The notes under the pieces were generated by a model. That model made no database searches and was not told the DNA's origin. It saw only the letters and a program-made list of their open reading frames with translations. From an uncultured Eubacterium sp. (lineage in GTDB: Bacteria; Bacillota; Clostridia; Lachnospirales; Lachnospiraceae), in assembly GCA_947384955.1 (NCBI GenBank), contig CANDJC010000005.1:2268-66267 (forward strand): a DNA stretch of 64,000 nt. Direction: 5' to 3'. Made by a program: the position numbers and the translations under genes. Shown piece after piece: positions 4,388-59,309 of this stretch (positions within the stretch are counted from its first letter, which is position 1; each line of letters opens with the position of its first letter).

Positions 4388-4610
4388 GAATGATTCATGA
4401 TAGAAAAAGAAGGAAGAAAAGAACCGTCTGGAAGAGTTCATAGAATAAGAATAAGAAAAAGAAGAAGCCGGAATGATTCATGACAGGAAAATAAGGAAGA
4501 AGAGAAACATCTGGAAAGGTTTATGGAATAAGAAAAAGAAGAAGCCGGAACGATTCATGACAGGAAAAGAATGAGAAAAAGGCATCAGAATGATTTATGA
4601 CAGAAAAATG
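4388..4610. repeat. Degenerate purine-rich tandem repeat upstream of the PBP gene
   Basis: GAA(T/C)GATT(C/T)ATGA(T/C)AG recurs at 4388, 4471, 4548, 4588 (periods 83, 77, 40); the first two units also share GAATAAGAAAAAGAAGAAGCCG. Confidence 0.75.
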
Positions 4611-4633
4611 CAGATATAACGGAGGACAAATAT

Positions 4634-6682
4634 ATGGCAAAACAGAATAAAAAGAAAAAATACCGTCACTTCTGGTTATTTTTTAAAGTGCAGCTGGTAC
4701 TTTTTCTTCTGCTTGCCGCCGCGTTAGGGTATTACTATGGAGCCGGATATGCTCAGACGGTTGCACAGCTTAAGGAAGACGCAGATATGCTGGTAGCAAA
4801 ATCCACGACTGAGCTGTTTCGAAAAGGCGAAACAGGGCTGGTATATGATAAAAAAGGGAAGCTTTTAAAGGAGTATAAAGGGGAAAAGGATTCTTATTAT
4901 ATTGAAATTCAGGATATTCCGGAAATTGTTATGGAAACATTTATCACAGTTGAAGACCGTAAGTTTTATAAACATAAGGGGGTGGATTACCTCGCTATTC
5001 TGCGGGCGGTCATTGCCATGCTTAGAAACGGGGAAGTAACACAGGGGGGAAGCACGATTACCCAGCAGCTTTCCCGGACGGTTTTCCTGAGCATGGATAA
5101 GACATGGGAACGCAAGATGGAAGAGATTTTTATTGCGCAGAACATGGAAAGAAAATATACAAAGAACCAGATTATGGAATTTTATCTGAATAACATTTAT
5201 TTTGGAAACGGTTATTACGGAATTCAGGCTGCGGCTCAGGGATATTTCAGTAAAAATATTGATGAGCTGAATTTATCACAGACGGTTTTTTTGTGTGCGA
5301 TTCCCAACAATCCGTCGCTTTATGATCCGGTAAACCATAAAAAGAATACATTAGCCCGCCGGGACCGAATGCTTGACAGCATGGAGGAAGAGGGAGTTAT
5401 TTCACACAGGTCGGCAGAAGAAGCCAGGGAGCAGAAAATTAAGCTTAAAAGAAAAAAGGGAATCAAAAAGAATAACTATGTGGAGACATTTGTAAATTAT
5501 TGTGCAATCCGTGCACTGATGAAACAGCAGGGATTTGAATTTCAATACTATTTTGATTCAGAAAAAGAAGAAAAAAAATACAACAAACAGTACAAAAAAC
5601 TGTACCGGGAGTGTGAAGGAAGCCTGTATACTTCTGGCTACCGGATTTATACTTCCATTGATACCGGGCATCAGAAAAAACTTCAGGAAGCGATTGACGA
5701 AGGACTGAGTGCTTATCAGGATGTCAGCGAGGAAGGAATCTATAAGCTGCAGGGCGCCGGAGTTACGATTGACAATACAACGGGATATGTGACGGCAGCT
5801 GTCGGGGGACGCTCGCAGGATTATGAAGGATATACCCTGAACCGTGCATATCAGAGCTTCCGCCAGCCGGGAAGCGCGATAAAGCCGCTGCTGGTATTTA
5901 CGCCGGCACTGGAACGGGGGTATACGCCGGATTCTGTGGTGATGGATGAGCCGTTCGAAGGCGGGCCGTCCAATGCGGATGGTGTATTTGAAGGAGCAAT
6001 TACTCTGCGTCATGCGGTAAAAAGGTCCAAGAATACAATCGCATGGAAATTATTTGAAGAGCTGACCCCGGTGACGGGCTTAAACTATTTAAAAGCAATG
6101 AATTTTTCTAAAATTGACCCGGAGGATGAAAGACTGCCGCCGGCACTGGGAGGATTTACGGTAGGTGTATCCCCGTTAGAAATGGCATCCGGTTTTGCTG
6201 CACTGCAGAATGACGGATGCTACCGGGAACCGACCTGTATTATAAAAATAGAGGATACACAGGGAAATCTGATTTATACATCAGAGCCAAAAGAGGACAG
6301 AAGCCGCAAATCCAAAAAGGATGAGGCGGAAGGCATACGCATTTACAAATCGAATGCGGCAAGAATGATGACAGATATGCTTCAGACGGTAATGACAGAA
6401 GGCACAGCCAGAGGGCTTGACCTTGGAGATATGCCGTCAGCGGGAAAAACCGGTACGACAAATGATAACAAAGACGGCTGGTTTGCCGGTTATACGCGTT
6501 ACTATACGACCAGTATCTGGGTGGGCTACGACCAGCCGCAGCAGCTGCCGGGACTGACGGGCTCGGCTTTTCCGGGAAGCATCTGGCATAATTATATGAT
6601 GTCCGTCCACGAAAATCTGACGCCTATGGATTTTATACCGTATATCGAGCAGAAAGAGGTTGATATGGATTTTGTTCAGTAG
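4634..6682 (+). CDS. Class A penicillin-binding protein (transglycosylase + transpeptidase)
   Basis: TG motifs EDRKFYKHKGVD, GGSTITQQL, RKMEE; TP motifs SAIK, SKN, KTGT; N-terminal TM anchor; RBS GGAGG. Confidence 0.93.
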   Translation: MAKQNKKKKYRHFWLFFKVQLVLFLLLAAALGYYYGAGYAQTVAQLKEDADMLVAKSTTELFRKGETGLVYDKKGKLLKEYKGEKDSYYIEIQDIPEIVMETFITVEDRKFYKHKGVDYLAILRAVIAMLRNGEVTQGGSTITQQLSRTVFLSMDKTWERKMEEIFIAQNMERKYTKNQIMEFYLNNIYFGNGYYGIQAAAQGYFSKNIDELNLSQTVFLCAIPNNPSLYDPVNHKKNTLARRDRMLDSMEEEGVISHRSAEEAREQKIKLKRKKGIKKNNYVETFVNYCAIRALMKQQGFEFQYYFDSEKEEKKYNKQYKKLYRECEGSLYTSGYRIYTSIDTGHQKKLQEAIDEGLSAYQDVSEEGIYKLQGAGVTIDNTTGYVTAAVGGRSQDYEGYTLNRAYQSFRQPGSAIKPLLVFTPALERGYTPDSVVMDEPFEGGPSNADGVFEGAITLRHAVKRSKNTIAWKLFEELTPVTGLNYLKAMNFSKIDPEDERLPPALGGFTVGVSPLEMASGFAALQNDGCYREPTCIIKIEDTQGNLIYTSEPKEDRSRKSKKDEAEGIRIYKSNAARMMTDMLQTVMTEGTARGLDLGDMPSAGKTGTTNDNKDGWFAGYTRYYTTSIWVGYDQPQQLPGLTGSAFPGSIWHNYMMSVHENLTPMDFIPYIEQKEVDMDFVQ

Positions 6683-48630: not shown

Positions 48631-49797
48631 ATGAGTGAAAAATACAAAATAGGCGATTATGAATTTAATACCTATGAAGAGTACCTTGCGGCGCAGGAGG
48701 ATGTAAAGAAAATCGATTTTATTACAAAGGAAGTCGATATTACGGATGCCGATGTCGCCGTAAGGCTCTACACTCTAATCAGGAATAAGGAAATTGTGTT
48801 CCGCAGTCAGGTGGGACTTTCCTTTTCCTGGTATCTGACAGATGTGCTGGCGCAGAATTCCCAGAATCTGCTAGAGGAAAAGCGGAAGCGGGAAGCGCAG
48901 CAGGAAAAAGGAAAGAAGTTTGGAATGGCGGGCATGCTGTGCATGCTGGCGGCTGTTCTCTGCCTGGGGTATTACGGGATTACTTTATGGCAGGAGCATT
49001 TGGAAAGCCAGGAGTATGAAAGGCTCCAGGATATGCAGAATCTGACAGGGCATATCATCCGCGATTCGGAAGAAGGCGCTGACGGTTCCGGGGAATCGGG
49101 CCAGGCAGACAGCCCTGAGACAGAACAGAACAGCAAAACGAATAACAGCAAAACAAAAAAGAAAAAAACAGACAAGAGCCAGGCAGCGGAGGAGAAAATC
49201 GACCCGGCTGACCTGACAGTCTTAAAGAAATATAAAAAACTGTATAAGCAGAATCAGGATCTGGCGGGATGGCTGTCTATCGAAGGTACGGTAATTGATT
49301 ATCCGGTTATGCAGACAGGCAGAAAGAACTCAGATTACTATCTGCATCATGATTTTGAGAAAAAAGAGAGTGACCACGGCACATTGTTTCTGGATGCAAG
49401 AAATGATTATGTGAACCGGGACACAAACCTGATTATTTACGGGCATAATATGCGGGACGGGACGATGTTCGGCGGGCTGAAGAGCTTTATGGACAAGGAG
49501 TATATGGAGCAGCACAGGGAAATTGTGTTTGACACGATATATGAAAAGGCGCGTTACAAGGTTGTCGCGGTATGTCTGTCTAAAGTAAATTATCAGGATG
49601 ACGAGGCTTTCCGGTATTATAATTTTCTGGAAGCGTCGGGGAAAGAAGAATTTAATGCTTTTCTGGCAAATATCCAGCAGCTGACGGTGTTTGACCAGAC
49701 AATTGATATTTCGTATGGGGATGAGCTGCTGACATTATCCACCTGCAACAGTTATATTCAGGACGGAAGGCTGTTCCTCATTGCGAAGAAGGAGTGA
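48631..49797 (+). CDS. srtB: Class B sortase with an extra N-terminal cytoplasmic domain
   Basis: GWLSIEGTVIDYPVMQ, IIYGHNM (His), TLSTC (Cys), GR (Arg); internal TM. Confidence 0.92.
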   Translation: MSEKYKIGDYEFNTYEEYLAAQEDVKKIDFITKEVDITDADVAVRLYTLIRNKEIVFRSQVGLSFSWYLTDVLAQNSQNLLEEKRKREAQQEKGKKFGMAGMLCMLAAVLCLGYYGITLWQEHLESQEYERLQDMQNLTGHIIRDSEEGADGSGESGQADSPETEQNSKTNNSKTKKKKTDKSQAAEEKIDPADLTVLKKYKKLYKQNQDLAGWLSIEGTVIDYPVMQTGRKNSDYYLHHDFEKKESDHGTLFLDARNDYVNRDTNLIIYGHNMRDGTMFGGLKSFMDKEYMEQHREIVFDTIYEKARYKVVAVCLSKVNYQDDEAFRYYNFLEASGKEEFNAFLANIQQLTVFDQTIDISYGDELLTLSTCNSYIQDGRLFLIAKKE

Positions 49798-49802
49798 CGC
49801 AT

Positions 49803-51374
49803 ATGATTAGTTCAATAGTAAAGCAGAAATTTGCCTTCACACTGGCAATGGCAATGGTATTATTCCTGATGCCGCGCGAAACCGTTTTTGCATCAAATAT
49901 GACGATTTCCGGCGGTGTACTGACTGCGTATAATGGCGGAGGCGGTGCAGTCACGATTCCTTCAGAAGTAACATCCATCGGGCCTGGTGCTTTTGCGGGC
50001 AAGGCAGTCAGCAGTGTCAGTATCCCTGGCAGTGTCAGGAGCATTGGCGATAATGCATTTGCAAACTGTACCGCGCTGGCAAACATTACAGTGCCTGGCA
50101 GTGTAACGAGTATGGGCAGCGGCGTATTTTCGGGCTGCAGCGGACTGAGTTCTGTCAGCATGCAGGCTTCGGTTTCTTCAATTCCTGCATCGACATTCAG
50201 CGGATGCAGGTCTTTAACAAGCATTGCGATTTCGGCAGGGGTTAGTTCCATTGGCAGCGGCGCATTTTCGGGCTGTAGCAGCTTAAGCTCTATGTCGGTA
50301 CCGTCAGGAGTCAGCAGCATTGGCGACAGCGCTTTTGCAAACTGCTCGAGTCTGTCGGCGATTTCTATTCCGGCGAGCACAAGCAGCATTGGCGGCAGTG
50401 CTTTGTCCGGCTGTTCGAATCTGACTACGATTAATGTAGCAGGCGGCAATTCGGCTTATGCATCAGATGGAGGATGCCTGTACAACGCATCGAAAACAAG
50501 ACTGATTATGGTTCCGGTCGGCAAATCGAGTGTTTCCCTGCATTCGTCTACGAAAATTATCGGCAGCGGTGCTCTGGCCGGCTGCAGCAGGGTGTCATCG
50601 CTATCTCTGCCGAGCGGGCTTACAACGATAGAAAGCGGTGCATTTTCCGGCAGCGGAATCCGTTCCATTACCATTCCGGCTTCGGTAACGTCGATTGGTT
50701 CCCAGTCGGGCTGGTCGCCGGATGTGATTACAGGTTACAGCAGCTCCGCGGCAGCTTCTTTTGCTGCTTCGGCGGGTTATACATTTTCCAGTCTGGATGG
50801 CGGTGGAAGTTCGTCAGACAGCAGCGATGATGATGAAAGTGATTCCGGTACAGCAGGAAGTACGACGGCAGATGTCAGTGATATTTCTTCCGGGGATGAT
50901 GCAGCCGATGAAGAAGAAGAACCGGATGATGATGAAACGGTAGGAAGTACAACCATAGATTTAGGAGAAGATTCGGGGAGCGGCTCAGGCTCTTCGGGCG
51001 GGAGCAGTTCGGGTTTTTCCGGCAGCGGTTCCGGTACAGGCAGCAGCTCAGGAGGCAGTACAGCTTCTTCCGGCGGCGGTTCCGGTGCAGGCAGCTCAGC
51101 TGGCAGTTCCGGTACGGGCAGCAGCTCGGGAGGCAGTACAGCAGCTTCTGGCAGCAGCACTGCGTCTGTGAGCAGTTCAGGAGGCAGTTCTTCGGCATCT
51201 TCCGGCAGCGGCAGTTCTTCCGGGGTTTATGCGGGAGCATCTTCCGGCAGCCATACGCTGGATGAAACGCCGAAAACAGGAGACGGCTCGATTGATCCCA
51301 GACTGTTTCTGATTATCGGGCTTGTGTTTGTAGGATGCGGGCTGATACTGGCTGGGAAAAAACAGAGAGTTTAG
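49803..51374 (+). CDS. BspA-type (LRR_5) surface protein with Gly/Ser stalk and TPKTG sorting signal
   Basis: Signal peptide; 23-aa repeats SIG..AF.gC.sL.si.ip.gv; acidic + G/S tract; DETPKTGD-hydrophobic-KKQRV tail; RBS overlaps the srtB end. Confidence 0.9.
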   Translation: MISSIVKQKFAFTLAMAMVLFLMPRETVFASNMTISGGVLTAYNGGGGAVTIPSEVTSIGPGAFAGKAVSSVSIPGSVRSIGDNAFANCTALANITVPGSVTSMGSGVFSGCSGLSSVSMQASVSSIPASTFSGCRSLTSIAISAGVSSIGSGAFSGCSSLSSMSVPSGVSSIGDSAFANCSSLSAISIPASTSSIGGSALSGCSNLTTINVAGGNSAYASDGGCLYNASKTRLIMVPVGKSSVSLHSSTKIIGSGALAGCSRVSSLSLPSGLTTIESGAFSGSGIRSITIPASVTSIGSQSGWSPDVITGYSSSAAASFAASAGYTFSSLDGGGSSSDSSDDDESDSGTAGSTTADVSDISSGDDAADEEEEPDDDETVGSTTIDLGEDSGSGSGSSGGSSSGFSGSGSGTGSSSGGSTASSGGGSGAGSSAGSSGTGSSSGGSTAASGSSTASVSSSGGSSSASSGSGSSSGVYAGASSGSHTLDETPKTGDGSIDPRLFLIIGLVFVGCGLILAGKKQRV

Positions 51375-51445
51375 ATACAGGAACAGGAATCGACTTTACC
51401 AGGGAGATTCCTGCTTCTGGTTTTTCTGAAAGATGGTGCATTGTA

Positions 51446-52588
51446 ATGCTGCAAAATGAGCTTTGTGCAATTGATTTATTTAGCGGCTGCGGAGGAGTGA
51501 CGGCCGGATTAAAAAAGGCGGGAATTAAAGTGCTTGCAGCTGTAGAGATTAATGAGACTGCAGCAGCTACATATCGGGAAAATAACAAAGAAGTGGCGTT
51601 GCTTCAAAGAGATATACGCGAGGTCAGCGGGGAGGAACTGAAAGAGGTTTCCGGGATGTCAGCCAGTGAGCAGCTGCTGCTGGTTGCATGTCCGCCGTGC
51701 CAGGGATTTTCTGCAATACGGCGGGGAGGAGAAAATGACGAGCGCAATCAGCTGGTATTTGAATTTCTGCGGCTGGTGAAGGAACTCAGGCCGGCATTTA
51801 TTTTGATGGAAAATGTAGCGGGTATGTCAAGGGGAAAAGGGAGAGAGACATTCCGCAGCGCATATCAGGAGTTTGAAAAATATTACAAATGCAAGTATGA
51901 TGTTTTAAATGCGGCAGATTATGGAGTTCCTCAGACAAGAAAACGTCTGGTGCTTCATGGGATTCGGAATGATTTATATGAAATGTGGAAGGAGAAAGGC
52001 GTAGAGATTCGCCTGCCGCGTCCGACACATATTTCAGCTGGAAAAAAGAAAAAAGACTGCAGTCTTCCGGTGTGGAAAACTGCAGACGTGATTCTCGGGC
52101 TGCCAGAGATAGAAGCAGGAGGAGAATATACGGGAGAAGGCGTTTATAATCATGTCTGCAACAGCATGAATGATATAAATATAAAAAGAATCAGGTATAT
52201 TCGGGAGCACGGGGGAAACCGCGCCTGTCTGCCGCAGGAGCTGGCTTTAGAATGCCATAAGGGAAAGAGCGGGCATACGGATGTATATGGAATACTGGAT
52301 ATGAAGAAACCCGCACCTACGATTACCGGAGGATGCATGTATTATTCAAAAGGCAGATACGGGCATCCTTATCAGAACCGTGCGCTGAGCGCGCGAGAGG
52401 CAGCAAGGCTGCAGTCATTTGATGACGATTATATTTTTCAGGGAACAAACGCCCAGATTGCTCTTCAGATAGGGAATGCTGTGCCGGTTGAGCTGGCAAA
52501 GGCAAGCGGACTGTATTTTGCAGAAATGTTCCGTGTTATGAAATCTAATTTGAACAAAAGCACAGACTGCGGTGTAAATAACGGATAG
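51446..52588 (+). CDS. C5 DNA cytosine methyltransferase
   Basis: Motif I FSGCGG, IV PPCQGFS, VI ENV, VIII QTRKR, X GNAVP; likely start ATG 51446. Confidence 0.95.
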   Translation: MLQNELCAIDLFSGCGGVTAGLKKAGIKVLAAVEINETAAATYRENNKEVALLQRDIREVSGEELKEVSGMSASEQLLLVACPPCQGFSAIRRGGENDERNQLVFEFLRLVKELRPAFILMENVAGMSRGKGRETFRSAYQEFEKYYKCKYDVLNAADYGVPQTRKRLVLHGIRNDLYEMWKEKGVEIRLPRPTHISAGKKKKDCSLPVWKTADVILGLPEIEAGGEYTGEGVYNHVCNSMNDINIKRIRYIREHGGNRACLPQELALECHKGKSGHTDVYGILDMKKPAPTITGGCMYYSKGRYGHPYQNRALSAREAARLQSFDDDYIFQGTNAQIALQIGNAVPVELAKASGLYFAEMFRVMKSNLNKSTDCGVNNG

Positions 52589-52883
52589 AAATTGTGCCGT
52601 TATTTAAAGCGCTGCAGACTGACTGTGCTGTCTGATACGTTTTCACAGTATAGACAGGCTGATGTTTCGGCGTGTCTTCATCTATAATACACCAGTCATT
52701 TCTATGAACAAGTCTGTACCGTTCTGCAGAAAGACTGGTATCTGTATAAGGAATCCATGTTTCGCAGACCGGACAGAATATCTGACGGATTTTACCGCTG
52801 CAGGTGTCAAGCGGGAAAGAGACATCTGCGGTATTCTGTGTATAGCACCGGTAACAGTAAAAGTTATAGATTGTTCGTTTCAT
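52545..52883 (-). CDS. Putative small Zn-ribbon protein, antisense within the MTase-ATPase gap
   Basis: RBS AGGTG 6 nt before ATG; CYRC...CPVC pair; fills the intergenic gap and overlaps the MTase 3' end by 44 bp. Confidence 0.45.
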   Translation of the reverse strand: MKRTIYNFYCYRCYTQNTADVSFPLDTCSGKIRQIFCPVCETWIPYTDTSLSAERYRLVHRNDWCIIDEDTPKHQPVYTVKTYQTAQSVCSALNNGTISIRYLHRSLCFCSN

Positions 52884-52932
52884 TAAAATCACCTGTATGA
52901 ATTATATGATAGTTAGAAAGGAAATATGCAGC

Positions 52933-55900
52933 ATGGGAGCTTTTAAAACAAAAGCAAGGGCCATTGAGTTATTAGGGAAAAAGCAGATTCGTGACAGTGT
53001 GACTGCGCTGGCTGAGATTATGAAAAATGCACATGATGCGGATGCCGGGCTTTTAAGGGTTGAGTTTTTGACGAAACAGGAACAGGTTCCCTGTATTGTC
53101 ATCTGTGATACAGGGGTGGGAATGGACAGGGAAGATTTGGAAAATAAGTGGTTTGTACTGGGCACTTCGTCCAAATTTGATAACCGGGAAAAGAAGTCGC
53201 CGGGCGGCAGAATCCTGATGGGAGAAAAGGGGATAGGAAGACTTGCCATTTCCCGTCTGGGACAGCAGATGTGGATGTTTACGAAAAAGAAAAATACGGG
53301 CTGGAATATTGTATATATCAACTGGAATATTTTTGAAAACCCGGACCTGTTTATTGAAGATATTAATATTCCGGTTTCTTATGACGGGAAGCTCAGCCAG
53401 ATTTCAGAGATAACTGCAAATCTTGAGAAAATGCAGACAGGCAATTTGAAAAGCGCCAGCTGGAAGACTCCGAAAAATGTGAATAAAAAGAAGCTGATAG
53501 AAAAGCAGATAAAAGAATCCAGACTGGATGAGGAACTGATAGATGATTTCTGCAGTATTATTGAAGAAAATGGTGTAAAACAGGGAACGGTTATTTTTTC
53601 CCTGAATTTAAATGATGACTGGGACAGATACCTGGACCCGGATACAACTGCCGATATGGATATGCTGGCTGTCAGAAATTATAACCGGCTGAATGCTTTT
53701 ATTACGGATTTTGGAACAAAGGAACCTGATTTTCAGGTGGAACTTTTTCACAATGGAAAATCCCTTGAATTTTCATCCGGTTTTACAGAAGAAGATTACG
53801 AAATATACGATTTACGAATTCAGGGAAGTGTGGAACATGGCTTGTTTCAGGGACATATCGATGCAAGAAATGCTGACAGTGCTATTTTAAATCAGTGTAA
53901 CGAGATACTGAAAAAAGGAATTACAGTTACAGCAGGAATCAGGGACTGGGAAAATGAAGACTGCGGAAAATATGAAGTGAAGTTCTGCCATTTCGAAATG
54001 GATAAAAAAAATACGGGACTGACTTTCACAGAATGGAATCTCATTAAGCAGCGCATGGATAAAGCAGGCGGAATCGGTGTGTATCGTGATAACGTCCGTG
54101 TACTGCCTTATGGGGAACCGGATAATGATTTTCTGGAACTGGAAATGCGCAGAAGTAAAAGTGCTACATTTTATCTGTTCAGTCATCGAAATATGTTTGG
54201 GAGGATAGACATTACTTCTCTTGAGAATCCGCATTTGGAAGATAAATCAAGCAGAGAGGGTTTTATTGAAAATCAGTATTACAATTATTTTATCCGTACC
54301 ATTCAGAATCTTTTAGTCAGAATCGCAGTAGAATTCGCAGGCGAGATGAATAAAAATTCCTTTAAGCTAAGAAGAAGCTACCTGAATTACAATAATAAGA
54401 AAAAGAAAGAACAGATACAGATACAGGAGTTTGAAAAGGAACAGGAACGTTTGCTGGCAGAGGACAGCGCGAGAGCAGAGAGACTGCTGAAGGAGAATAT
54501 TCCGAAGCTTACACAGTTTGAAGAAGAGATTCAAAAAAGGCTGAAGGCACTGAGAGAGATAGAGTATGATTCATACACCCGGTATAATCATTTGATTGAA
54601 AATGAAAGAAAAGTGAAATCCTGCCGCTATGGGATGGAAGGTTATATTTCAGATACAAAAAGGACTCTGCACATTAGTATAAACGAACGATTAGAAAGCA
54701 GATATGAACCGCAGCTGTTAGAACGGATAGATATGTTTGATGAAAGATTAGAAGATGTGACACAAAGTTCAGCGGAAGAGATGCGGTCATTATGCGAATA
54801 TATTCTGAACCTGAACCATTTACGGCTGCAGGCATACCATGAGGATTTTGAAAAACAGACCGGGGCAGGAATGGATGAAGTTTTGTCTGATGTGAAGGAA
54901 TATCTGGATAAGACAAGAACGATGCTTGCGCAGATGGCAAAAGAAGCGCAGGATCATGCAGACATCAGATATGATAAATTAATGCAGAAAGCTGACCGCA
55001 TCAGGGACTATGAACAGGATATTTTAAAGTTTAAGCGTGAATCCAGTGAAATTATTTACCATGGACTGTGTGCTATTAATTTAAATCTGGACGCTGTCGA
55101 ATATGCGGTGAAAGACCCGGGAACGCCGCAGGAGCTGATAGATGCCCGGGATAAAATCAGCGCCAGGGAAGAAGAGATATATTCTGAAATGGAACAGGCT
55201 GTCAGGAATATTGAGGAGCGTTATGCTGTGATTGACAGCAGATTAGATGAAATATTATGCAGATACGATACCGACGATGCGTCGCTCATACGTCAGCTGA
55301 CGACGCGGAATAATGAGCTAAAACAGTTAAACGATATGTATGCGGATCTGGCTAATCTGGGAATGGCGGCGGAGATTGTCAGTCATGAATTTAATCAGAT
55401 GTTTCATAATATCTATGACGCAGTGAACCAGCTGCGGTTTCAGGGTGTTTCAAAAGAGGGCAGATATTATCTGAATCAGATAGATATTGGATTTCGGTCT
55501 GTATCAGACCGTCTGAGTCAGATGTCCCCGATGTACAGAAGCAGGAGCATGTACAAAAAGAAAGTAAATATACATGATATGTTAGAAGATGTGCATTCTT
55601 TTTTTGAGAGCCGGATGCAGAAACAGAGTGTGAAGTTTATCAATGATGTGCCTCGGGAGCTGGTATTAAAAATATCGCTTTCGAAAATATATCCGGTAAT
55701 ATCGAACCTGTTTTACAATTCTTTGTACTGGATGGCAGATAAGAAAAACAGAATGATTCTGGTAAGATACGAAAAAGCAGAAGAAGCCCTGTATGTCGAG
55801 GATTCCGGAGAAGGCATTGCCGTCCGGAATAAGGAACGGGTTTTTGAACCGTTCTTTTCCCTGAAGAAGGACGGAAGGGGACTCGGGCTGGCAATTTCCA

Positions 55901-56013
55901 GAAATGTGCTGGAAGCTCAGGGACATAAAATAGAAGCCGTTACTGAGCCGGAAAGCAAATGTCTGGAAGGAGCATGTTTTAAAATTACGTTTGGAACGGA
56001 GGAAGGGGAATGA
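52933..56013 (+). CDS. GHKL (MORC/MutL-like) ATPase fused via a coiled coil to a histidine kinase
   Basis: N-terminal EIMKNAHDA, DTGVGM, GEKGIGR; C-terminal H-box VSHEF, N-box NLFYNS, DSGEGI, FEPFFS, GRGLGL. Confidence 0.88.
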   Translation: MGAFKTKARAIELLGKKQIRDSVTALAEIMKNAHDADAGLLRVEFLTKQEQVPCIVICDTGVGMDREDLENKWFVLGTSSKFDNREKKSPGGRILMGEKGIGRLAISRLGQQMWMFTKKKNTGWNIVYINWNIFENPDLFIEDINIPVSYDGKLSQISEITANLEKMQTGNLKSASWKTPKNVNKKKLIEKQIKESRLDEELIDDFCSIIEENGVKQGTVIFSLNLNDDWDRYLDPDTTADMDMLAVRNYNRLNAFITDFGTKEPDFQVELFHNGKSLEFSSGFTEEDYEIYDLRIQGSVEHGLFQGHIDARNADSAILNQCNEILKKGITVTAGIRDWENEDCGKYEVKFCHFEMDKKNTGLTFTEWNLIKQRMDKAGGIGVYRDNVRVLPYGEPDNDFLELEMRRSKSATFYLFSHRNMFGRIDITSLENPHLEDKSSREGFIENQYYNYFIRTIQNLLVRIAVEFAGEMNKNSFKLRRSYLNYNNKKKKEQIQIQEFEKEQERLLAEDSARAERLLKENIPKLTQFEEEIQKRLKALREIEYDSYTRYNHLIENERKVKSCRYGMEGYISDTKRTLHISINERLESRYEPQLLERIDMFDERLEDVTQSSAEEMRSLCEYILNLNHLRLQAYHEDFEKQTGAGMDEVLSDVKEYLDKTRTMLAQMAKEAQDHADIRYDKLMQKADRIRDYEQDILKFKRESSEIIYHGLCAINLNLDAVEYAVKDPGTPQELIDARDKISAREEEIYSEMEQAVRNIEERYAVIDSRLDEILCRYDTDDASLIRQLTTRNNELKQLNDMYADLANLGMAAEIVSHEFNQMFHNIYDAVNQLRFQGVSKEGRYYLNQIDIGFRSVSDRLSQMSPMYRSRSMYKKKVNIHDMLEDVHSFFESRMQKQSVKFINDVPRELVLKISLSKIYPVISNLFYNSLYWMADKKNRMILVRYEKAEEALYVEDSGEGIAVRNKERVFEPFFSLKKDGRGLGLAISRNVLEAQGHKIEAVTEPESKCLEGACFKITFGTEEGE

Positions 56014-57836
56014 CAGGAACTGGTGCAGATAAATTAGCGGAGATACTGAAGCGTTATTTAAATCATATCGTTTACATTGATGATGAATTTAAAATATCCT
56101 GGAACACCCGGGAGCATGATGAAGAAAAGCCCCCGCGAAGAAGCAGCAGAAAATATGCCGGTTCGCAGGCAGAACAGGATGATGCAGCTGCTTTAGAGAG
56201 TAATCTGGAAGCATTCTGTAAGATTGTGCGCAGAGAATATCCTGAAATACTGCTTACTCCTGTTGTGTATGAAGAGCCGATGGATATTGAGAACCTGGTT
56301 ATTCATATGAAACAGGCAAGAATGCTTATTTTGGACTGGAGTCTGTCTGAGAGAGTTACAGCGGTGAAACTTCTTAAGCGGGCGGAGTTTTTTGGGCAGC
56401 TTCGGTTTTGCGTCATCTATACTTCGAAACTGGATGATGCAAAAAGGGAATTTATAAATGAAATCCCCAATGTGAAAAGAGACGGACTTAAGAGAGGGGA
56501 ATGCAGAGGGAAAGAATATGAGTATGTAAGAGCAGATTCTGTAATTTATCTCATCTGTGAAAAGGATAAATTTGATTTTCATATGATTATGAGTTCTTTA
56601 ACAGAGATATTTATCCAGGAAATAGGATATTTCCCGGTTGCTTTCCTTGATATGGTTGCAAGACTGGAGGAAAAAGTGCCGTACTATTTAAACCAGTTTT
56701 CCTGTCCGTTTGATAAGCTGCTGATGCTGCAGATTAATTCTGACGGCCTTCCGATGAATGATGTATATCACACGATGAATGATATGGTTGTTAACAATAT
56801 AAGAGCTGATATCAATCTTGACGAAAGTGTTCTTGACGGCATTTTCGAAAATCAGATTTATCTGCTCAAGCAGCTTTCAGGCGATGAAGAACGGTTTCAG
56901 GAAAGGCTGTATAAGAGTCTGGATATTATTTCAGACCGCCTGGAATGCCCGGAGAGTGAACGGGCACTTCTAAAGGAGATTCCGCTGGAACATTATAAAA
57001 AAGTTATTGAGAAAGCAGTTCTAAATCCCAGGGATTTATCAAAAGGGTTACATAGTGCCAGTGAAATGCTGGCGAAACAGTATGGCATACAGAAGGCAGA
57101 AAGGCTGATAGCAGAAAGCGGAGCGGCGAATGGCAATGCAGGAATTAAAAAGGAGCTGTCGCGTCTGTATCGGCAGCAGTTCAGGCAGAAAGCAGAGAAA
57201 ATATTTCCGGCATGTCTGATGATTCTGACGAATCCCGATGAGAGTTATCAAATCAACAGACTGATTACTTCACTGAAAATTGTAAATTATAAAGATGGCG
57301 ATAACGTCTTCCCGGAAATTTTTCGTGACTGCTATACTCAGGAAGAAGAATATATGTGCTTAAAGACTGAGGCAGGCAGGCCAAAGCTGGGGCTGCTGCA
57401 AAATAAGCTTAATTCAGGTGATATTTTATATAAACGAGAAGGCGGCATTGAAAAATGTTATCTGTGTATCGTTCCGTCATGTCATATTTTAAGGCCTAAA
57501 AAGGTGGATGGCAATATTTTATTTGTAGAAGGCAGGATTGTGAGTGAGAAGCCGGACAGGAATCTGAAGGACAGCGAACACTTTACGATTCTGCCGGGAG
57601 TGGAAGATGAAAATAAGCTGATGCGTGTAATCTGGCAGTATCATAAAATTGTCAGCCTGGATTTGAACAGAATATTATGCAGTGATTTTGAAAATTTACG
57701 CCGGCCATATAAACTTACATATGAATACGTGCGTCAGATTATGGGGGAATTTGTGGCTTTTTATTCCAAATCCGGGGTAGAAGAGCTGTTTTTAAAAGCA
57801 GATTCGTCTTTGGAGCATTTACTGCTTCGCAGGTAA
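56010..57836 (+). CDS. Atypical receiver-domain protein (Response_reg_2-like), partner of the GHKL-HK
   Basis: IVYIDDE, LILDW, VIYTS; C-terminal YLCIVPSC; ATGA overlap with the upstream gene; no HTH output domain. Confidence 0.78.
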   Translation: MTGTGADKLAEILKRYLNHIVYIDDEFKISWNTREHDEEKPPRRSSRKYAGSQAEQDDAAALESNLEAFCKIVRREYPEILLTPVVYEEPMDIENLVIHMKQARMLILDWSLSERVTAVKLLKRAEFFGQLRFCVIYTSKLDDAKREFINEIPNVKRDGLKRGECRGKEYEYVRADSVIYLICEKDKFDFHMIMSSLTEIFIQEIGYFPVAFLDMVARLEEKVPYYLNQFSCPFDKLLMLQINSDGLPMNDVYHTMNDMVVNNIRADINLDESVLDGIFENQIYLLKQLSGDEERFQERLYKSLDIISDRLECPESERALLKEIPLEHYKKVIEKAVLNPRDLSKGLHSASEMLAKQYGIQKAERLIAESGAANGNAGIKKELSRLYRQQFRQKAEKIFPACLMILTNPDESYQINRLITSLKIVNYKDGDNVFPEIFRDCYTQEEEYMCLKTEAGRPKLGLLQNKLNSGDILYKREGGIEKCYLCIVPSCHILRPKKVDGNILFVEGRIVSEKPDRNLKDSEHFTILPGVEDENKLMRVIWQYHKIVSLDLNRILCSDFENLRRPYKLTYEYVRQIMGEFVAFYSKSGVEELFLKADSSLEHLLLRR

Positions 57837-57902
57837 TCTGCAGATAATCTGTGTGCCGGACTTAAGAAAATAAGGAATTTCACCGGAATTACAAAAAATA
57901 TC

Positions 57903-57956: not shown

Positions 57957-59309
<1,353 letters not shown>

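Follow-up and report, generated by a model that had tools for sequence, protein, structure and literature searches.

Results

A predicted intact four-gene cassette between a BspA-like gene and gdhA

The stretch of DNA analysed here, which we call the window, is 64,000 nt long and comes from an uncultured Eubacterium sp. of the Lachnospiraceae (GenBank assembly GCA_947384955.1, contig CANDJC010000005.1); all coordinates are window positions unless another contig or locus is named. The locus studied (51446–57836) encodes a C5 cytosine DNA methyltransferase (the methylase), a small zinc-ribbon protein, a putatively soluble histidine-kinase-like protein (the kinase) and a receiver protein whose last domain is predicted to adopt the fold of the MazF, PemK and CcdB toxins (Table 1). 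These four genes lie between a gene for a BspA-like leucine-rich repeat surface protein (49794–51374) and gdhA (57975–59309), the receiver gene and gdhA being only 138 bp apart. The guanine-plus-cytosine content of the module is 0.39–0.44, as compared to 0.46–0.54 in its flanks.

Table 1. Window positions of the cassette genes and of the domains and sequence remnant assigned within them
Feature	Position	Strand	Basis
C5 cytosine DNA methyltransferase, 380 aa	51446..52588	+	PF00145, TIGR00675, PADLOC MTase_II
Small zinc-ribbon protein, 112 aa	52545..52883	-	tblastn conservation in sister loci
Histidine-kinase-like protein (putatively soluble), 1026 aa	52933..56013	+	Pfam and 12-sequence alignment
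N-terminal GHKL ATPase core (HATPase_c_3)	53002..53337	+	PF13589 E 1e-19
DHp/H-box (HEF_HK), predicted phospho-accepting His818	55354..55542	+	PF19191 E 4e-13
Kinase catalytic ATP-binding domain (HATPase_c)	55684..55992	+	PF02518 E 5e-18
Receiver protein, 608 aa	56010-57836	+	Response_reg_2 PF19192
REC domain, acceptor Asp109	56010..56564	+	PF19192 28.2 bits and AlphaFold2 model
All-helical middle domain of receiver protein, aa 190-423	56577..57278	+	AlphaFold2 model
MazF/PemK/CcdB-fold C-terminal domain (predicted), aa ~465-597, candidate effector	57402..57800	+	AlphaFold2 and Foldseek
Last ~50 nt of receiver gene, kept as scar in nearest module-less congener	57787..57836	+	Alignment to G304

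For comparison we surveyed 16 distinct sister loci, collected mainly as contigs encoding the proteins, from metagenome-assembled genomes labelled Bacteroides or Roseburia, from Enterococcus ureasiticus, Proteiniborus and Paenibacillus, and from other Clostridia. All 16 contain the kinase, the receiver protein and an adjacent C5 methylase, at identities to the window proteins of 66% to 35% (kinase) and 65% to 23% (receiver). The window methylase is 36–82% identical to its counterparts in these loci, matches PF00145 (E 3e-66), TIGR00675 (E 5e-56) and the PADLOC model MTase_II (E 4e-93), and contains the motifs DLFSGCGG, PPCQGFS, ENV, QTRKR and GNAVP. Because the sister methylases are 371–373 aa long and homology with a module-less congener extends to the same ATG, we take 51446 to be the correct start. 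A 16-nt inverted repeat (52569–52612; 88% complementary, 12-nt loop) spans the methylase stop codon within the 3' end of the small gene; since no T-run follows it, it is not a standard terminator.

The original prediction for this DNA, made from the letters and their open reading frames (ORFs), described a C5 methylase, a 1026-aa protein with two GHKL folds and an H-box, and a translationally coupled receiver protein, with no gene for a restriction endonuclease, HNH protein or Vsr between the BspA-like gene and gdhA. Each of these elements is borne out by our searches, with the exception that the locus contains four genes rather than three, a conserved minus-strand zinc-ribbon ORF having been overlooked. 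The ORF list, the translations and scans with Pfam, NCBIfam and PADLOC revealed no restriction endonuclease, HNH or Vsr between the two flanking genes, and the interval 51.3–57.9 kb holds no additional ORF of at least 80 aa matching any nuclease family. The idea of a hidden second copy or a nuclease partner elsewhere in the window genome (G000) was rejected, the module being single copy. The only Vsr gene of this genome is located on a different contig, next to two further C5 methylase genes (C2, 78920–85216; ~3.7 kb between).

The 16 sister loci likewise share no conserved nuclease. An adjoining EcoO109I restriction-modification (R-M) system in one locus (L014) and a weak downstream HNH match in another (L022) are single cases, while Vsr is present in six loci, usually overlapping the receiver stop codon. 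Thus, the possibility raised at the outset that homologous loci always carry a nuclease that was simply deleted here does not hold; the proposed neighbourhood survey for a missing fourth gene yielded no shared nuclease, and instead Vsr in six loci and the zinc-ribbon gene in ten. None of the four module ORFs is interrupted, and no catalytic motif is damaged. With complete motifs, and with a Vsr gene available at another place in the genome, the module is, as far as its sequence can be read, an intact four-gene cassette and not the truncated system that had been offered as an alternative.

The receiver protein is predicted to end in a MazF/PemK/CcdB-like domain

The start codon of the receiver gene overlaps the kinase stop codon as ATGA and is preceded by GGAGG, an arrangement indicative of translational coupling. 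Response_reg_2 (PF19192) is the sole family match of the protein, at 28.2 bits against a cut-off of 27. In 69 relatives D109 is invariant and D24, D25, T138 and K185 are kept in 96–99%; the DD, D and T originally read from the translation are therefore retained in 96–100% of these sequences.

An AlphaFold2 (AF2) model of the full protein, built from the 69-sequence alignment, has a predicted local distance difference test score (pLDDT) of 87 and a predicted template modelling score (pTM) of 0.76. It is laid out in three parts: firstly, a REC domain (residues 1–185) of alternating strands and helices, for which Foldseek finds the receivers of PorX, KdpE, TrrA and PmrA; secondly, a bundle of eleven helices without any strand (residues 190–423); thirdly, a domain that is rich in beta strands and closes with a long helix (residues ~465–600). 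Searched against the PDB, the full model has MazF (5cqy_A, 5xe3_B; probability 1.00) and CcdB among its best matches. Because this output had no query ranges, we modelled residues 455–608 alone (pLDDT 88.5, pTM 0.79). The top six PDB matches of this domain are all MazF, including 1ub4_A (the best, E 8e-4), 5cqy, 5xe3_B, 6kyt_A and 9ikd_B, with probabilities of 0.99–1.00 and template modelling scores by target of 0.61–0.68; the CcdB structures 7epj, 4elz and 2vub rank after them. In the viral library BFVD, the top five matches are annotated as PemK-like or as endoribonuclease. Two AF2 models and Foldseek in two libraries thus point to a MazF/PemK/CcdB fold for the receiver C-terminal domain, and this assignment is among the new results; we found no paper describing a receiver–MazF fusion in such a context.

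Within the protein, conservation is likewise highest in the C-terminal domain, where the mean top-residue frequency is 0.47; it is 0.35 in REC and lowest, at 0.31, in the helical bundle. Across the 69 sequences G470, C491, G508 and G589 are invariant; C486, P489, R495, Y573 and K596 are kept in at least 93%, and P529, W542, V590 and F594 are also nearly invariant. Every full-length receiver partner tested, including partners of kinases down to 38% identity, contains the domain at an E-value of about 1e-50, and the distant relatives that could be named are all Firmicutes (Bacillus, Paenibacillus, Anaerospora, Longirhabdus). The predicted toxin-fold domain is thus a constant feature of the Firmicutes branch examined. 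No gene for a MazE/AbrB- or CcdA-type antitoxin is adjacent, the sole small neighbour being the zinc-ribbon ORF.

It had been proposed that an effector is hidden in the 450-aa receiver tail and that Foldseek might reveal it there. An effector-type fold was indeed found, although it is not a classical nuclease fold and is confined to the last ~140 residues (about 465–600), residues 190–423 being the helical bundle. Of the parts of this locus, the C-terminal domain is the likeliest hidden effector, with a toxin activity suggested by its modelled fold.

A GHKL ATPase head is joined to a histidine kinase

The kinase is organised as an Hsp90/MORC-type GHKL ATPase head, a conserved middle domain, a long helical region, a DHp domain (HEF_HK) and a kinase ATPase domain, with Pfam matches to HATPase_c_3 in its N-terminal part and to HEF_HK and then HATPase_c in its C-terminal part (Table 1). 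By eye, its translation contains no obvious hydrophobic stretch. A search yielded at least 1865 relatives at E ≤ 1e-10, and this trio of Pfam domains recurs in nearly all of them. Aligning 12 kinases from independent loci revealed invariant motifs in both ATPases: in the head, E28xxxN32, D59xG61xG63 and G97xxG100xG102; in the kinase part, the H-box S817-H818-E, the N-box at 925, the G1 box D957xG959xG961, the F-box at 971 and the G2 box GRGLGL at 981. The H-box reads SHE(F/L/M) in all 12.

The HATPase_c domain matches sensor kinases of known structure, e.g. 3a0t, 4gcz and 2c2a. For the first 560 residues, the nearest solved structures reached by a family profile are HtpG (E 5e-4) and MORC2 (E 4e-3), over the ATPase core only. 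Because the profile reaches both, we assign the head to the Hsp90/MORC-type GHKL ATPases, in keeping with the MORC-like head originally read from the translation.

The middle domain contains, around residues 343–443 (53960–54260), the invariant blocks DCGxxxxKxCHxE, GG(I/V)xxYRDxVxxLPYGE and GRIDI(T/S)SxxNPxLEDKSSREG, and yet has no match in Pfam, in profile searches of PDB sequences or in any nuclease family. Its ID...EDK block is superficially PD-(D/E)xK-like; its LEDKSSREG block presumably resembles the catalytic loop of Hsp90, and the profile found no PDB match for it. Such strong conservation invites the explanation that the kinase itself is the effector, its head and middle domain clamping or compacting unmethylated DNA or hiding a nuclease site, while the receiver protein serves as a feedback regulator only. 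The PADLOC REase_II models, which describe putative GHKL-containing type II restriction endonucleases, match the head, and MORC-type ATPases act on DNA (PMC2292703). That PADLOC match, however, covers the ATPase core only, the middle region resembles no nuclease family in Pfam or among PDB sequences, and the top conservation of the receiver C-terminal domain would be left unexplained. We therefore regard an effector role of the kinase as improbable.

A conserved zinc-ribbon gene occupies the methylase–kinase gap

The 345 bp that appeared to separate the methylase and kinase genes are occupied by a minus-strand ORF of 112 aa with two CxxC pairs (CxxC...CxxC, four cysteines). This gene is convergent with the methylase gene, which it overlaps by 44 nt, and divergent from the kinase gene, with 49 bp from start codon to start codon. 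With tblastn, an equally placed and equally oriented counterpart was detected in ten of the 16 sister loci, at 23–57% identity. Residues R3, C10, C13, C37, C40, W43, T49, L51, Y56, D70, C90 and N94 are invariant in the family, and a GGTGAT ribosome-binding site precedes every start codon; that of the window ORF is read as AGGTGA.

A Pfam scan of 15 members and a PDB profile search gave generic weak zinc-ribbon matches only, with no helix-turn-helix (HTH) family among the Pfam matches, and a collection of 5.8 billion proteins contains five clusters of the family only. The gene is missing from the Enterococcus, Paenibacillus and Proteiniborus branches, which marks it as a clade-specific accessory. 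In four sister loci (L010–L013, about 4547–4954), public gene calls place a plus-strand ORF of 95–127 aa here, whereas it is the zinc-ribbon protein, read from the minus strand with a GTG start, that is conserved; the family is therefore under-annotated.

The module is rare and appears horizontally mobile

The receiver protein is present in one of 301 sampled Lachnospiraceae genomes, each of a different genus, and its C-terminal domain in one of 401 genomes sampled across the phylum; the only genome matched in either sample is that of the window. Within the genus, three of 22 genomes match the receiver protein: the window genome, one with a pseudogene with stops at another place in the genome, and one with a distant 545-aa homologue. 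The pseudogene (G315:C1:2350609–2352464; loci L040, L042 and L044) is broken by stops and frame changes and lies at a site unrelated to gdhA.

The flanking genes are syntenic in congeners. In the nearest of these (G304, locus L036; G304:C49, 4960–5215) the module is missing and 148 bp separate the BspA-like gene from gdhA. This spacer aligns to the window over 51375–51446, up to the methylase ATG, and again over 57787–57860, a segment that begins with the last ~50 nt of the receiver gene. Because the retained receiver codons are conserved in unrelated homologues, the spacer is a clean deletion scar and not an empty insertion site; the module was once present in the G304 lineage and was later lost. 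In other congeners the same spot holds a 573-aa AAA-ATPase-like ORF (L037, G303), a HicB-like antitoxin ORF (L039, G310) or ~0.6 kb of unassigned DNA (L038, G312). Since other species of the genus carry different cargo there, the interval between the BspA-like gene and gdhA is a variable hotspot. From its sampled occurrences and contexts, the module is rare, horizontally mobile and linked to mobile elements.

Two explanations bear on this distribution. The first is that the module is purely selfish, killing cells that lose a mobile element as methylation falls (post-segregational killing) and playing no anti-phage role. Copies lie on a plasmid-like contig with Rep3 and ParA and beside recombinases and transposases, and type II R-M systems can likewise act as addiction modules. 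The clean loss of a chromosomal copy from a sister species indicates, on the other hand, that loss is survivable; moreover, one sister locus adjoins Wadjet, the Ambrosia system described below does defend its host, and the two roles are compatible. Addiction as the sole function thus seems to us quite unlikely. The second explanation is that the locus has become inactive or is decaying, or else that it is an epigenetic regulator with a housekeeping role and no part in conflict. It could draw on the lack of Vsr next to the receiver gene, on the pseudogenised copy in one congener and on the deletion in another. It is opposed by the four open ORFs, the intact catalytic motifs and the Vsr gene elsewhere in the genome, and the distribution of the module is far too patchy for housekeeping; we consider it very unlikely.

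Relation to known systems

The Pfam families HEF_HK (PF19191) and Response_reg_2 (PF19192) were defined by Bellieny-Rabelo, Pretorius and Moleleki in 2021, from bioinformatics only (PMC8011034). In 644 regions the two were linked in 91.6%, with C5 methylases enriched upstream and Vsr downstream; the cassette was found in 628 strains, and no other known domain was reported in the receiver proteins (PMC8011034). The window locus shares with this class a 'group 1' kinase (HATPase_c_3, HEF_HK and HATPase_c, with an H-box His followed by an acidic residue), an adjacent Response_reg_2 protein keeping DD/D/T/K, and an upstream C5 methylase. Vsr follows the receiver gene in the class, as it does in sister loci, and the kinases are described as cytoplasmic, the window kinase being likewise predicted to be soluble. 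By these features the locus is a member of the published class and so not undescribed; besides the description of the class in 2021, experimental validation of a relative followed in 2025 (bioRxiv 10.1101/2025.09.30.679545). It differs from the class as reported in the modelled MazF/PemK/CcdB-fold domain beyond REC, in its antisense zinc-ribbon gene, which is absent from the paper, and in lacking Vsr and any R-M nuclease at the locus.

The validated relative is Ambrosia (AbrR-AbrA-AbrB-AbrC-AbrD) of Pseudomonas aeruginosa, which comprises an XRE regulator, an N6-adenine methylase, a HATPase kinase, a REC–winged HTH protein and an HNH protein, and which blocks phages in P. aeruginosa in a manner that requires the receiver Asp (bioRxiv 10.1101/2025.09.30.679545). 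The two systems share a cluster of methylase, HATPase-type sensor kinase and receiver protein, with anti-phage activity demonstrated for Ambrosia. By contrast, AbrD is an HNH (type IV-like) endonuclease, whereas the window locus has no HNH; AbrC joins REC to a winged HTH, whereas the window receiver is modelled as REC, helical bundle and MazF-like barrel; and in place of an XRE/HipB-like regulator and an N6-adenine methylase, the window has a zinc-ribbon protein without an HTH match and a C5 methylase. Because these four defining parts differ, the locus is not a member of Ambrosia, from which it is set apart by the description of that system and not by AbrB/AbrC sequences.

Ambrosia nevertheless suggests another explanation for the window locus, namely a transcriptional circuit. 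Infection would be sensed by the kinase, and the receiver protein, once phosphorylated, would switch on the cassette or other genes as a DNA-binding regulator; its C-terminal domain would serve for binding or dimerisation and would not be a toxin. A model of this kind was put forward for Ambrosia, the only tested relative, and the divergent small gene with its 49-bp start-to-start gap suggests tight promoter control. The AF2 model of the window receiver, however, contains no winged helix or other HTH, and neither do its Foldseek matches; nor is there a nuclease to switch on in the window or in the 16 sister loci. MazF and CcdB folds are not known to act as DNA-binding regulators. We assign a low probability to such a circuit.

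The MazEF, PemIK and CcdAB toxins appear to share a fold with the last ~130 receiver residues (an SH3-like barrel and a C-terminal helix in the model). The window domain differs from them in being fused to REC and a helical bundle and in having neither a MazE/CcdA antitoxin gene nor a detectable sequence relationship. The head of the kinase recalls the paraMORC and other GHKL ATPases of R-M-type systems, e.g. VcSduA (Shedu with a GHKL head; PMC2292703, PMC12137116), with which it shares an Hsp90/MORC-type GHKL domain, intact motifs and a methylase-linked mobile context. MORC and paraMORC ATPases combine GHKL motifs I–III with an S5-fold transducer domain (PMC2292703); the window head has the motifs, its profile match covers the ATPase core only, and the middle domain is unmatched. 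ParaMORC and VcSduA proteins couple to helicases or PD-(D/E)xK nucleases, whereas the window ATPase is fused to a histidine kinase with a predicted phosphorelay output. Orphan C5 methylase loci of the Dcm-Vsr type combine C5 methylase and Vsr, as do six sister loci; in contrast to them, the methylase of the present loci invariably accompanies a kinase/receiver pair, and the module can do without Vsr, as in the window. Finally, unlike type II R-M systems, the window locus contains no cognate restriction endonuclease, and none is conserved in the sister loci.

A methylation-marked, phosphorelay-gated toxin system is the favoured reading

Our preferred reading, advanced tentatively and with a little less than even confidence, is a methylation-marked, phosphorelay-gated toxin system that does without a nuclease and serves defence, element addiction or both. 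The C5 methylase would mark the cell's own DNA, and the GHKL head of the kinase, a putative DNA-clamp-type ATPase, would report DNA without the mark, be it foreign or newly unmethylated, or some other sign of invasion. This signal would travel along the ~300-residue helical region to the DHp domain, where His818 would autophosphorylate and pass its phosphoryl group to Asp109. Phosphorylation of REC may then free or dimerise the C-terminal toxin-fold domain, which would halt growth or phage replication, either by cleaving RNA as MazF does or through a different toxic interaction resembling that of CcdB. Since loss of the methylase would trigger the toxin, the same circuit might stabilise a mobile element. 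The zinc-ribbon protein would most simply be a controller of the divergent promoter region, or else a modulator of the kinase/receiver pair, and Vsr, where sister loci have it, would repair T:G mismatches arising from 5-methylcytosine and nothing more. We favour this reading because of the intact motifs, the ATGA coupling, the conserved receiver residues, the predicted toxin fold, the nuclease-free sister loci, the mobile and defence-type behaviour of the module and the precedent of Ambrosia.

A number of results weigh against it. The likeness to MazF and CcdB is confined to the level of the fold, and sequence methods are blind to it: the receiver tail (residues 151–608) and 10 short relatives had no matches in Pfam, NCBIfam or PADLOC; PDB sequences searched by phmmer and profile hmmsearch, with the whole receiver protein and with its C-terminal domain, yielded chance matches only (such as TDP2 and HDAC8), with no MazF or CcdB; and hhalign of the domain against a Lachnospirales MazF profile of 10 near-identical sequences gave a probability of 1.5%, over the GDI strand only. 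The catalytic Arg and Thr of MazF have no obvious counterparts, the positions equivalent by strand order being variable or Gly508. The two cysteines, Arg, Tyr and Lys that are conserved in the domain (C486, C491, R495, Y573, K596) differ from the MazF catalytic set, so that its activity cannot be read from the fold. PADLOC has no model for the kinase or the receiver protein. The Ambrosia methylase gave phage DNA no protection, and transcriptional control is the explanation preferred by the authors of that study (bioRxiv 10.1101/2025.09.30.679545).

A more specific version of the preferred reading might be called 'restriction by signalling'. The clamp-kinase would read the C5 mark itself, a missing mark would drive the His818–Asp109 relay to the MazF/CcdB-fold toxin, and immunity based on self and non-self would be achieved without DNA cleavage; the toxin would represent a new branch with two cysteines, and the zinc-ribbon protein would be a dedicated controller. 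We think it rather unlikely that this version holds in all its parts.

Cassettes of this class occur widely, with at least 1865 clusters of the kinase found here and 628 strains in PMC8011034, and yet PADLOC does not include them. A toxin-type fold at the receiver end offers a concrete and cheaply testable hypothesis, with H818 and D109 as candidate residues of the relay and C486, C491, R495, Y573 and K596 as those of the effector domain. If true, the preferred reading would join two-component signalling, DNA methylation and toxin–antitoxin-type effectors in one immune or addiction mechanism, and would explain how such 'R-M-like' loci function without a nuclease.

Neighbourhoods of individual sister cassettes

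Several sister cassettes lie in distinctive surroundings. One directly adjoins Wadjet (JetABCD; L010, 10545–17131). Another is located on a plasmid-like contig with Rep3 and ParA, beside an EcoO109I-type R-M pair (L014, 71–3091 and 10037–12187). A third lies beside three large serine recombinases and an ApeA_NTD1 gene (L076, 1–4150 and 12908–13420), and one copy adjoins IS21. In two loci (L019 and L020, about 1–1584) the methylase is called as two ORFs, the first a fragment at the contig edge (340 aa in L019, 204 aa in L020), the second of 186 aa, which suggests a frameshifted methylase beside intact kinase and receiver genes.

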